DNA from: Candidatus Woesebacteria bacterium
Lineage (GTDB): Bacteria > Patescibacteriota > Microgenomatia > UBA8517
Length of the DNA stretch: 64,000 nt
Reading direction: 5' to 3'
Assembly (NCBI GenBank): GCA_016700095.1
Contig: CP065002.1
Coordinates: 432,463-496,462 of the forward strand
Below the pieces are notes generated by a model. The model was given only the letters and a program-made list of their open reading frames with translations. It had not been told where the DNA came from and did no database searches. Positions 41,445 to 45,266 of this stretch are shown in pieces. Position 1 is the first letter of the stretch; the number at the start of each line of letters is the position of its first letter. The position numbers and the translations under genes are program-made.

Positions 41445-41465
41445 TTGGCAGGGGTGGAGGGAATC
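41445..41465 (-). repeat. 21-bp direct repeat of the tRNA-Trp 3' end (att-like scar)
   Basis: 'cttggcaggggtggagggaatc' at 41445-41465 equals 41556-41576 (tRNA 3' acceptor/T-stem plus 2 nt). Confidence 0.8.
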
Positions 41466-41557
41466 CCTTCGACACCTTTTACTTGCTCAGGGTAAACTTC
41501 TCATCCCTGCAATATTAATAACCAAAAATTCCAGATCTACGACCGGGAATTATTACT

Positions 41558-41631
41558 TGGCAGGGGTGGAGGGAATCGAACCCCCAATAGCGGTTTTGGA
41601 GACCGCTGTTATACCATTTAACTACACCCCT
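41558..41631 (-). tRNA. tRNA-Trp (anticodon CCA)
   Basis: Reverse complement AGGGGTGTAGTTAAATGGTATAACAGCGGTCTCCAAAACCGCTATTGGGGGTTCGATTCCCTCCACCCCTGCCA. 7-bp acceptor, anticodon loop CUCCAAA, GGTTCGATTCC T-loop, encoded CCA. Confidence 0.9.
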
Positions 41632-41635
41632 ATAT

Positions 41636-41800
41636 AACAAACAACAAACAACAACCAACACCCAACCTTCCAGCAAACAACAACCAACCCCCAACAAACA
41701 ACAAACAACAACCAACACCCAACCTTCCAGCAAACAACAAACAACCCCCAACAAACAACATACAACAACCAACCTTCCAACAAACAACTTCTTTAGGTTG
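41636..41800. repeat. CA-rich tandem repeat (~57-bp unit, ~2.5 copies, built from ACAAACAAC motifs)
   Basis: 'aacaaacaacaaccaacacccaaccttccagcaaacaaca…' occurs twice plus a partial third copy. The antisense 'VVCCLL' ORF is an artefact. Confidence 0.85.
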
Positions 41801-42711: not shown

Positions 42712-42885
42712 TTACTTCAATTTTGTGGTTTCTTTGTGCTCAGTTTGTTTCTTGCACAGTTTACAAAACTTACTTAATTTAAGTTTTTCTTCCATATTTA
42801 ACTTGTTACGCGTTGTAACGTAATTTTGCGATTTACAAATTGCACAAATCATAGCGACTATTTCTGATTTTGATTTTCTTGCCAT
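42712..42885 (-). CDS. rpmG: 50S ribosomal protein L33
   Basis: 'MARKSKSEIVAMICAICKSQNYVTTRNKLNMEEKLKLSKFCKLCKKQTEHKE' follows the L33 zinc-ribbon pattern (C-x2-C…C-x2-C). I set the start to the internal ATG. Confidence 0.8.
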   Translation of the reverse strand: MARKSKSEIVAMICAICKSQNYVTTRNKLNMEEKLKLSKFCKLCKKQTEHKETTKLK

Positions 42886-43117
42886 AGATATTCTAAATGC
42901 TAAAGACTTCTTGGGAAACAAAAAGTTTCTTCGTAAGTTCTTCGCATTGTAGCACAACTTTTTGTTGGTATAAAGTATACAAGTTGTTGGTAAGACTTAG
43001 CTTATCTAAAACTGGCTTTAACTTGGCAACCAGTGATTACTTATATAAGTTATGTGAGTTTTGGATAAAAGTACTCGTGAATTGACATACGTCCTTTTAT
43101 AAATTAATAATAAATAT

Positions 43118-43417
43118 ATGACTATAGATGATTTTTTAGAGGAGTGGTCAAGCGTTCCGGGAGTGACTCCTCCCAACGATAAAGTTAAAACAGAATTTAA
43201 AAAGAAACATCAAGGAAATAATGGTAAGGATAAAAGGGGAAATAAAGGTAAGGTCGAACAAGCTGTACCAAGAAATCCTTCTTTGCCAATCCCGGGTAAT
43301 CCTGATACATTTAAAGCTTTACTGAGAGATGAATGGGACGAGTTGGCTGAATCAGGTCAGGTAAAACCAAGAGGTCCGAAAGATGATCACTGGTTGAGCA
43401 GGAAACGCAGTACGTAA
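43118..43417 (+). CDS. Hypothetical basic protein
   Basis: ATG start. Lys/Arg-rich. No domain. Confidence 0.35.
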   Translation: MTIDDFLEEWSSVPGVTPPNDKVKTEFKKKHQGNNGKDKRGNKGKVEQAVPRNPSLPIPGNPDTFKALLRDEWDELAESGQVKPRGPKDDHWLSRKRST

Positions 43418-43526
43418 AACAAGAAAATACTCTAGAAGATGCGGGAAGGTGCCTGAGTATTAAAAGGATCTCTTGAATCTCTTTTGATCTATTCTTGAGC
43501 GCCGCGCGAGTGAGCTTAAAATCAGG

Positions 43527-43596
43527 AGCCTGAGGAGGGGATTGAACCCTCGACCTAATTCTTGTGATTTATCATGCGACAGCTGCAAGAATGCGC
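43527..43596 (-). pseudogene. 5'-truncated pseudo-copy of tRNA-Thr(GGU) with a ~21-nt insertion in the anticodon loop, preceded by a duplicated 28-nt flank
   Basis: 43499-43592 repeats the unit [gcgccgcgcgagtgagcttaaaatcagg + tRNA 3' portion] of 43593-43692. The anticodon stem 'cattcttg[tgatttatcatgcgacagctg]caagaatg' is interrupted. The D-arm and 5' acceptor are missing. Confidence 0.8.
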
Positions 43597-43620
43597 CGCG
43601 CGAGTGAGCTTAAAATCAGG

Positions 43621-43692
43621 AGCCTGAGGAGGGGATTGAACCCTCGACCTCATTCTTACCAAGAATGCGCTCTACCACTGAGCTACCCAGGC
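43621..43692 (-). tRNA. tRNA-Thr (anticodon GGU)
   Basis: Reverse complement GCCTGGGTAGCTCAGTGGTAGAGCGCATTCTTGGTAAGAATGAGGTCGAGGGTTCAATCCCCTCCTCAGGCT. Cloverleaf with anticodon loop UUGGUAA. Confidence 0.85.
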
Positions 43693-45000: not shown

Positions 45001-45085
45001 GTGCTGAGGGAGGGATTCGAACCCCCGTAGCCCGTTCGGGCGCGAGATTTACAGTCTCGTGCGATTGGCCGCTCCGCCACCTCAG
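45001..45085 (-). tRNA. tRNA-Tyr (anticodon GUA, long variable arm)
   Basis: Reverse complement GCTGAGGTGGCGGAGCGGCCAATCGCACGAGACTGTAAATCTCGCGCCCGAACGGGCTACGGGGGTTCGAATCCCTCCCTCAGCA. Type II variable arm. Confidence 0.85.
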
Positions 45086-45193
45086 CTTAAGATTCACTAA
45101 AATACATTTGACCCCGAAAACGTGAATATTTAATTCTTACAAAATATTGTTAGCGATACAATACGATACTTTCAATACTGTGTATGTGATTTG

Positions 45194-45266
45194 AGCCGAA
45201 GGTGGGAGTCGAACCCACGACCTGCTGGTTACAAAACAGCTGCTCTGGCCACTGAGCTACTTCGGC
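45194..45266 (-). tRNA. tRNA-Thr (anticodon UGU)
   Basis: Reverse complement GCCGAAGTAGCTCAGTGGCCAGAGCAGCTGTTTTGTAACCAGCAGGTCGTGGGTTCGACTCCCACCTTCGGCT. Anticodon loop UUUGUAA. One U·C mismatch closes the anticodon stem. Confidence 0.75.

Follow-up and report, generated by a model that had tools for sequence, protein, structure and literature searches.

Partial copies of tRNA-Thr(GGU) behind the intact gene at a recombination hot spot of a Candidatus Woesebacteria genome

Integrated islands and prophages can carry displaced fragments of tRNA genes at their ends (Reiter 1989; Williams 2002; Islander database), as reviewed in PMC9897764, where Williams (2002) is credited with an anticodon-loop class of tRNA att sites. 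The array at the present locus shares with such fragments a repeat of the 3′ part of a tRNA downstream of an intact gene, an identity block that starts in a loop and the non-functional state of the fragment. It differs from them in that there is neither an island nor an integrase, the gap between the tRNA and the first repeat being 55 nt, in that the repeat extends 26 nt beyond the tRNA, and in that the fragments are in tandem with the sole extra gene outside them. Work on ICESt1 and the CIMEs of Streptococcus thermophilus has reportedly documented the tandem accretion of integrative elements and cis-mobilisable remnants at one site. Serial att-like repeats beside one target gene and an interior without recombination genes are common to CIMEs and the array, but CIMEs are kilobases long with recognisable att arms, whereas the units of the array are 77–94 nt long and contain no demonstrable recombinase site. 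Tandem paralog arrays, the products of unequal crossing-over and gene conversion, among them tRNA pseudogenes that arose by tandem duplication, offer a further comparison: in them, too, the copies stand head-to-tail and the period is near the length of one gene, and they too contain hybrid units with the junction in residual homology and have one part kept identical while the rest has decayed. Unlike them, the array has a 22-nt replacement in an anticodon loop, and similar inserts are found in distant lineages. Intron-containing tRNAs (bacterial group I, archaeal bulge-helix-bulge) also carry extra nucleotides inside the anticodon loop; in the array, however, the insert is in the wrong position and of the wrong size for group I, anticodon bases are lost, and the unit concerned is without the 5′ half of the tRNA and is missed by tRNA finders. 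The array is best classed with tRNA-gene remnants at a recombination hot spot.

The DNA analysed here, called the window, is a stretch of 64,000 nt from Candidatus Woesebacteria (Patescibacteria/CPR), and the whole tRNA array lies on its minus strand. The features to which the text refers are, in window coordinates:

41558–41631, minus: tRNA-Trp (ARAGORN, Rfam in agreement)
42712–42885, minus: rpmG, ribosomal protein L33 (Pfam PF00471)
43082–43111: promoter-like site of ORF99, matching at 11 of 12 positions
43118–43417, plus: ORF99, 99 aa, convergent with the tRNA, no family match in Pfam or PHROGs
43448–43524, minus: unit U2, 77 nt, a flank and a strongly decayed 3′ half that ends in CTCAGGCACC
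43448–43498, minus: degenerate remainder of U2, from alignment to the tRNA 3′ half
43499–43524, minus: flank F2, the 5′ part of U2, the same as F1 (26/26)
43525–43618, minus: unit U1, 94 nt, or 74 nt (the tRNA length) without the 22-nt segment
43525–43563, minus: 3′ half of U1 (AAGAATTAGGTCGAGGGTTCAATCCCCTCCTCAGGCTCC), 38/39 against the tRNA (repeat search, BLAST)
43564–43585, minus: 22-nt segment CAGCTGTCGCATGATAAATCAC in U1, in place of anticodon bases 2–3
43586–43592, minus: ATTCTTG, the 5′ arm of the anticodon stem with the first anticodon base, kept in U1 (repeat search)
43593–43618, minus: flank F1, the 5′ part of U1, TGATTTTAAGCTCACTCGCGCGGCGC on the tRNA strand
43619–43692, minus: intact tRNA-Thr(GGU) (ARAGORN; Rfam RF00005, 68 bits, full model)
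43658–43660, minus: anticodon GGT of tRNA-Thr(GGU)
45001–45086, minus: tRNA-Tyr (ARAGORN, Rfam in agreement)
45193–45266, minus: tRNA-Thr(UGU) (ARAGORN, Rfam in agreement)

The functional tRNA-Thr(GGU) gene is 74 nt long, sits upstream of U1 and U2 on its own strand and is unaffected by the array. The two partial copies follow it head-to-tail, directly at its 3′ end in the orientation of the gene; the initial annotation had called them upstream, which is correct in plus-strand coordinates but not in the orientation of the tRNA itself. Its basic observation is borne out by ARAGORN, Rfam and the repeat search: an intact tRNA-Thr(GGU) is accompanied by a truncated copy whose anticodon loop has gained nucleotides and by one more remnant. 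The start that it gave to the array, 43470, has to be moved 22 nt farther, to 43448. Past the array on the tRNA strand come ORF99, rpmG, an orphan ORF of 236 aa and tRNA-Trp, and U1, U2 and ORF99 are the sole content of the segment of ~620 bp between tRNA-Thr(GGU) and rpmG. A secreted-type ORF of 271 aa lies between tRNA-Tyr and tRNA-Thr(GGU). Every junction of the tRNA cluster in the window holds an orphan ORF (271, 99 and 236 aa) without family match, and the only database match of the 236-aa ORF is the hypothetical protein IPM62_02305 of the source genome itself.

The central element of the array is a direct repeat of 65 nt (43499–43563 and 43593–43657), which the repeat search found with 64/65 identity and a spacing of 94 nt. 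It is composed of a non-tRNA flank of 26 nt and 39 nt of the 3′ part of the tRNA; beyond the insertion the tRNA and U1 have 11 more nt (GCGCATTCTTG) in common. This self-alignment confirms the duplication that had been proposed; the proposed unit of 94 bp, made of 28 + 66 nt, is right in its spacing, but the exact block is 26 + 39 nt. The 3′ half of U1 covers the tRNA from the first base behind the anticodon through the 3′ end, and the lone mismatch is a G-to-T change in the last pair of the anticodon stem. Between the repeats U1 has 29 unique nt, which include the 22-nt segment. The latter, earlier estimated at about 21 extra nucleotides, does lie in the anticodon loop, but it replaces GT, bases 2 and 3 of the anticodon, for a net gain of 20 nt, and no second copy with up to 3 mismatches is present in the window. 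U1 has neither a 5′ acceptor strand nor D-stem pairing, in keeping with the earlier description of the truncated copy.

What had been recorded as a third fragment exists, but it belongs to a whole third unit at 43448–43524, with a perfect copy of the flank and a degenerate 3′ half. On the tRNA strand U2 reads TGATTTTAAGCTCACTCGCGCGGCGC, T, CAAGAAT, AGATC, AAAAG AGATTCAAGAGATC CTTTT, AATA and CTCAGGC ACC. CAAGAAT is the 3′ arm of the anticodon stem, the 5′ arm and the loop being absent, and AAAAG with CTTTT forms a hairpin of 5 bp with a 14-nt loop at the site of the former T-stem. The 3′ half of U2 is only about half identical to that of the tRNA, its flank being a perfect copy, and the score of its global alignment to the tRNA 3′ half was matched by 0 of 2000 shuffles. 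The 18-nt core of the flank occurs twice in the window and in no shuffle of it; since no shuffle yields even one match to this core, the repeat is not a product of chance.

The flank resembles a decayed acceptor/D-arm when set against the tRNA sequence, with 12 of 18 positions identical to tRNA nt 9–26 (AGCTCA........GCGC). F1 and F2 both end in GCGC, which corresponds to tRNA nt 23–26, and have AGCTCA in common upstream of it; U1 and U2 both align to the tRNA from the D-arm region through the 3′ end. The D-arm likeness of the flank and the similarity of U2 argue that both units are best seen as whole decayed copies of the tRNA with a period of about one tRNA length. The units stand head-to-tail as in a tandem array, their period is near the gene length, the similarity covers the whole unit, and the junction of the younger unit falls in sequence common to both parent copies.

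The extra nucleotides inside the anticodon loop, together with the intact T-arm and 3′ acceptor strand, might suggest that U1 is a real tRNA gene with a short anticodon-loop intron, a reading to which we give virtually no credence. U1 lacks a 5′ acceptor strand and D-arm pairing; its 22-nt segment replaces anticodon bases and does not lie 3′ of position 37, so its position differs from the canonical intron site; and 22 nt is far below the size of bacterial group I introns, which are much longer. ARAGORN reported no tRNA in U1 or U2 in its default, intron, pseudogene and tmRNA modes, nor did it report one in U1 after the 22 nt had been swapped for GT in silico, and over the array the real tRNA alone was recognised as a tRNA by Rfam at E ≤ 10. 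An intron-containing tRNA is ruled out by the intron and pseudogene modes of ARAGORN, the in-silico repair and Rfam. The tRNA finder with pseudogene option that had been recommended as a check thus calls the intact gene (ARAGORN) but makes no call on U1 or U2. tmRNA and other tRNA-like families of Rfam were considered as well; none reached the gathering threshold, and at E ≤ 10 there were weak chance matches (Plastid-ycf2, TLS-PK3). The literature was searched for introns or fragments of tRNAs in CPR bacteria, with no specific result.

The best explanation of this anatomy, to which we attach about even confidence, is that the array is a non-functional recombination scar, consisting of two decayed head-to-tail partial copies of tRNA-Thr(GGU) that arose in two steps. 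In the first step an older tRNA-Thr-like copy, the present U2, would have become placed directly behind the 3′ end of the gene, at a period of ~74–77 nt. Its decay would have removed the acceptor/D-arm pairing and the 5′ arm and loop of the anticodon, and eroded the T-arm. In the second step, suggested by the anatomy of the units, misaligned homologous recombination or replication slippage between the gene and U2, with the crossover probably in the residual D-arm homology AGCTCA...GCGC, would have produced U1 as a hybrid of the decayed 5′ part of U2, the tRNA from the 3′ strand of the D-stem to the 3′ end, and the same 26-nt flank. A filler of 22 nt may then have replaced two anticodon bases in U1, as a third step, and gene conversion from the functional gene would thereafter reach only up to this 22-nt heterology, that is, the 3′ half.

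If U1 is such a hybrid of the gene and U2, this would account for the perfect repetition of the flank, for the near identity of the U1 3′ half with the gene and for the lack of a 5′ acceptor strand in U1 from the start. The inclusion of the non-tRNA flank in the repeat points to tandem duplication rather than to an att core. A point against the scar model is that U2 combines a perfect flank with a 3′ half that is only about half identical, so that the history needs at least two events in addition to a separate 22-nt replacement. On this reading, recombination at a tRNA gene has left the array as an ordinary by-product, which is of practical use mainly to annotators: neither U1 nor U2 should be annotated as a tRNA gene or taken as an island boundary.

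The comparison with orthologous loci, also recommended as a check, shows comparable remnants in some distant loci and no array in most relatives. The formyltransferase of the window is at most 52% identical to those of Woesebacteria MAGs, and the neighbouring proteins are absent from the collections searched or match the source genome only. No close relative of this genome is present in these collections. The Woesebacteria-like loci L001–L023 keep one gene order, fmt ... Thr(UGU)-Tyr-(variable)-Thr(GGU)-(variable)-rpmG-Trp. The spacers of this tRNA cluster range from 3 nt (L018, Tyr-Thr) to 4.4 kb, the first two tRNAs are often inverted, and split clusters have 0.3–4.4 kb of unrelated genes between the tRNAs. 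In these small CPR genomes the Thr-Tyr-Thr-rpmG-Trp cluster is a hot spot for inversions and insertions as well as for partial duplications. rpmG directly follows tRNA-Thr(GGU) in L004, L005, L007, L009, L015, L016, L018, L020 and L081, and the array is therefore dispensable and lineage-specific. The gap between the two genes is ~45–60 nt in most relatives, and the ~620 bp with U1, U2 and ORF99 is therefore a lineage-specific insertion. L081, the sole metagenome contig with the same tRNA 3′ end, is without the array.

Among the loci with remnants, L006 has after its tRNA-Thr(GGU) a decayed 5′ part, CTTCTTG, an insert of 23 nt and a 3′ half of 38 nt that equals its own tRNA. The layout in L001 is similar, with an insert of 26 nt and a 3′ half that does not pair with the resident 5′ acceptor strand; some 200 nt farther downstream lies a second fragment, which terminates with the resident 3′ end. 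The loop insertion of U1 is not as unusual as had been supposed, inserts of 23–26 nt being found at the same place in L001 and L006. The inserts of these two loci share a 9-mer, a match that 54 of 3000 shuffles reach, and the 22-nt insert of the window has no significant similarity to either by shuffling. Fragments after tRNA-Thr(GGU) in L040 and L042 have their break in the T-loop. tRNA-Thr-like fragments in L001 (13925–13999) and L028 (downstream of 16282, minus) have the same 18-nt 3′ end, ATTCCCATCGTCGGCTCA, which matches the resident tRNA-Thr(GGU) of neither locus; its occurrence in two distant lineages suggests that these are horizontally delivered tRNA fragments.

The source of the window is a MAG and its only database match is the genome itself, as could be the case for an assembly artefact in which a short repeat was spuriously expanded. 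Such an artefact is very improbable, for the units differ from one another (the repeats are separated by 29 unique nt and differ by one substitution, and the third unit has diverged heavily), and comparable structures are present in the independently assembled L001, L006, L028 and L040. With regard to the preferred scar model, the similar remnants after tRNA-Thr(GGU) in other Microgenomates would fit the older layer represented by U2, and that layer also fits recombination with foreign DNA anchored in conserved tRNA loop sequences. The recurrence of 23–26 nt inserts at the same loop position in L001 and L006 is not well explained by independent fillers.

Partial copies of tRNAs are more widespread than the array. 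Exact partial copies of at least 15 nt within 300 nt accompany 12 of 88 tRNAs in Microgenomates-like loci, compared with 1 of 28 in others. Without exception in the Microgenomates-like loci, 5′ pieces lie upstream of the tRNA and 3′ pieces downstream of it, and the copies break in one of three loops, the D-loop (at nt 20/21), that of the anticodon or the T-loop.

The window itself contains another remnant, behind tRNA-Trp. The last 20 nt of this tRNA (GATTCCCTCCACCCCTGCCA, a T-loop break) are repeated 92 nt downstream (41446–41465, minus), and just 5′ of the fragment is a block of ~47 nt (~41466–41512), block B, which reads GGGATGAGAAGTTTACCCTGAGCAAG...GTCGAAGG and has the motif form GGGATGAG..GTTTAYCCTGAGCAAG..GTCGAAGG. 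Block B is clearly homologous to the tRNA-Thr(GGU) trailer in the Levybacteria locus L040 (15607–15650), with a score that 0 of 3000 shuffles reach; it is also found in L010 (6448–6491) and weakly in L006. The Thr flank of the window resembles the first part of the same L040 trailer (AAGCTCAC...TCGCG; 10 of 3000 shuffles), and the motif form of flank F, or block A, is TGGATTCGACAAGCTCAC...TCGCG. The proteins of the lineages that share these flank motifs are 35–50% identical. Non-coding similarity at such a distance is not expected for purely neutral old relics, and the shared flank motifs point to mobility or selection, at least for the older layer. Inspection by eye also led to the rejection of block B as a hammerhead-like RNA, of which the catalytic core bases are absent, and as a coding sequence, since the reading frame is not conserved between copies.

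Serial integrase-mediated insertion and excision at one att site had been the mechanism first proposed for the array. Under this reading U1 and U2 would be attR-like displaced tRNA 3′ fragments from successive integrations of one type of element, with the crossover in the anticodon loop, the interior of the element almost wholly deleted and the 26-nt flank as the element arm beside the core; we regard both the att-like origin and these particulars as possible but doubtful. The identity block (38/39) of the direct repeat begins inside the anticodon loop and reaches the 3′ end of the tRNA, as at att sites of the anticodon-loop class. The strict polarity and the D-, anticodon- and T-loop breaks of the partial copies at 12 of 88 Microgenomates tRNAs agree with it, as do the foreign 3′ end ATTCCCATCGTCGGCTCA common to L001 and L028, which implies horizontal delivery, the flank motifs common to different lineages and tRNAs (Trp in the window, Thr in L040), and the highly variable gene content between these tRNAs in a cluster that is a hot spot of recombination and insertion in relatives.

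Other features of the locus speak against integration. Neither element DNA nor an integrase lies between the gene and the fragment, a gap of 55 nt that leaves no island, and ORF99 is located beyond the fragments and not between them. The identity block is not confined to a core, as the repeat continues 26 nt past the tRNA 3′ end. A tyrosine-recombinase core needs a spacer of ~7 bp; the arms of the anticodon stem in U1 are 22 nt apart and do not form a usable core. The 30 window ORFs scanned with Pfam between 24 and 58 kb, 3 of them also with PHROGs, are housekeeping or accessory enzymes and transporters, with no integrase, recombinase, phage or other mobile-element gene among them; none was found either beside the remnants of L001 and L006 among 10 ORFs (Pfam) and 2 ORFs (PHROGs). 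Scans of viral contigs in IMG/VR yielded no attP-like site: there were 0 matches to the tRNA 3′ core and 0 to the D-loop-type motif, a single match to the flank 18-mer (L082), which has no tRNA context and is taken as chance, and 8 matches to block B, which are chance-like and inside other sequence. Viruses and plasmids of CPR bacteria are presumably poorly sampled. With no integrase among the scanned ORFs, no island and the 26-nt non-tRNA flank included in the repeat, the serial att-site explanation has little direct support and ranks below the recombination scar. A genomic island bounded by a distant fragment was rejected, as the ends of the four tRNAs have no additional copies in the window at up to 3 mismatches, and none beside rpmG.

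Selection would be at work if the tRNA 3′ portion were kept identical as a functional non-coding element that acts in RNA or single-stranded DNA, which we consider distinctly unlikely. Such an element might act on the 5′ half of the tRNA as a competitor or decoy, or it might signal processing or termination where the transcripts of the tRNA and ORF99 converge; transcribed from the other strand, as part of the 3′ UTR of ORF99, it might be antisense to the tRNA 3′ half. The 3′ part is identical to the resident tRNA although the tRNAs differ (38/39 in the window, 38/38 in L006 and 17/17 in L040), the flank motifs are conserved over deep divergence, every pair of the anticodon-like stem can form in the window, in L001 and in L006 though the sequences differ, and U2 retains the 5-bp AAAAG/CTTTT hairpin at the former T-stem. 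Most relatives are, however, without the element, including L081 with the most similar tRNA, and the 3′ part mismatches the resident tRNA in L001 and L028. T-arms are broken in several remnants (L040, L042 and the Trp trailer), which argues against a conserved tRNA-like fold. Compensatory changes could be compared in few homologues (window, L001, L006, L028, L040 and L042), several of which have broken T-arms, and the stem pairings in them are inherited from tRNA stems and so do not represent independent covariation. There is no Rfam match, no terminator-like site and no excess folding stability, the fold of the whole array against shuffled sequence giving z = −0.28 and the z-scores over all tests lying between −0.3 and −1.9. 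Two narrower candidates were rejected: the array as an intrinsic terminator, with no terminator-like site within it, and the idea that the 22-nt insert is the flank copied in inverse orientation, for which the complementarity is marginal only (134 of 5000 shuffles reach it; fold z = −1.6).

Recurrence across lineages could also reflect tiny non-coding elements of about 50–200 nt that insert into tRNA loops in Microgenomates and duplicate the adjacent 5′ or 3′ part of the tRNA, or functional mimics of tRNA halves, an idea that we hold to be unlikely. Such elements may leave the tRNA intact on insertion and may cover Woesebacteria, Levybacteria and Curtissbacteria; U1, U2 and the 20-nt tRNA-Trp fragment with block B may then be copies of an element and not random scars. 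If a mobile or functional element were real, it would give tiny non-coding DNA a newly described means of exploiting tRNA genes, in a bacterial radiation that has received little study, and would help to explain how accessory genes enter between conserved tRNAs.

Besides these fragments, relatives contain copies of tRNA nt 1–20, with the break in the D-loop, 30–70 nt upstream of Thr(UGU) or Thr(GGU) (L003 12601–12634, L006 12774–12793, L012 12938–12957, L022 12181–12211, L023 13264–13327 and L008 ~12846). After the copies come a constant core, TAAGCAAAGCTTGG, and the D-arm in inverted orientation (CCACTGAGC). The TAAGCAAAGCTTGG core is also found off tRNAs in tandem arrays of 30 nt with variable short hairpins between (L002 8498–8571, L003 15192–15235). 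The repeats with this core look like a REP-like family of small repeats, which is absent from the window.

Some minor observations concern the surroundings of tRNA-Trp. Directly upstream of this gene a tandem repeat of 57 nt (41636–41773, TRF) has 2.4 copies with 97% match and is G/T-rich on the tRNA strand. tRNA-Trp is usually linked in the order tRNA-Trp-secE-nusG-rplKAJL. Downstream of it on its strand the window has convergent genes for RibD_C, NUDIX and nucleotidyltransferase proteins, not secE/nusG, and the ribosomal protein L10 leader (RF00557, 1563–1681, minus, 47.7 bits) is ~40 kb away from tRNA-Trp. The usual linkage seems to be broken here.
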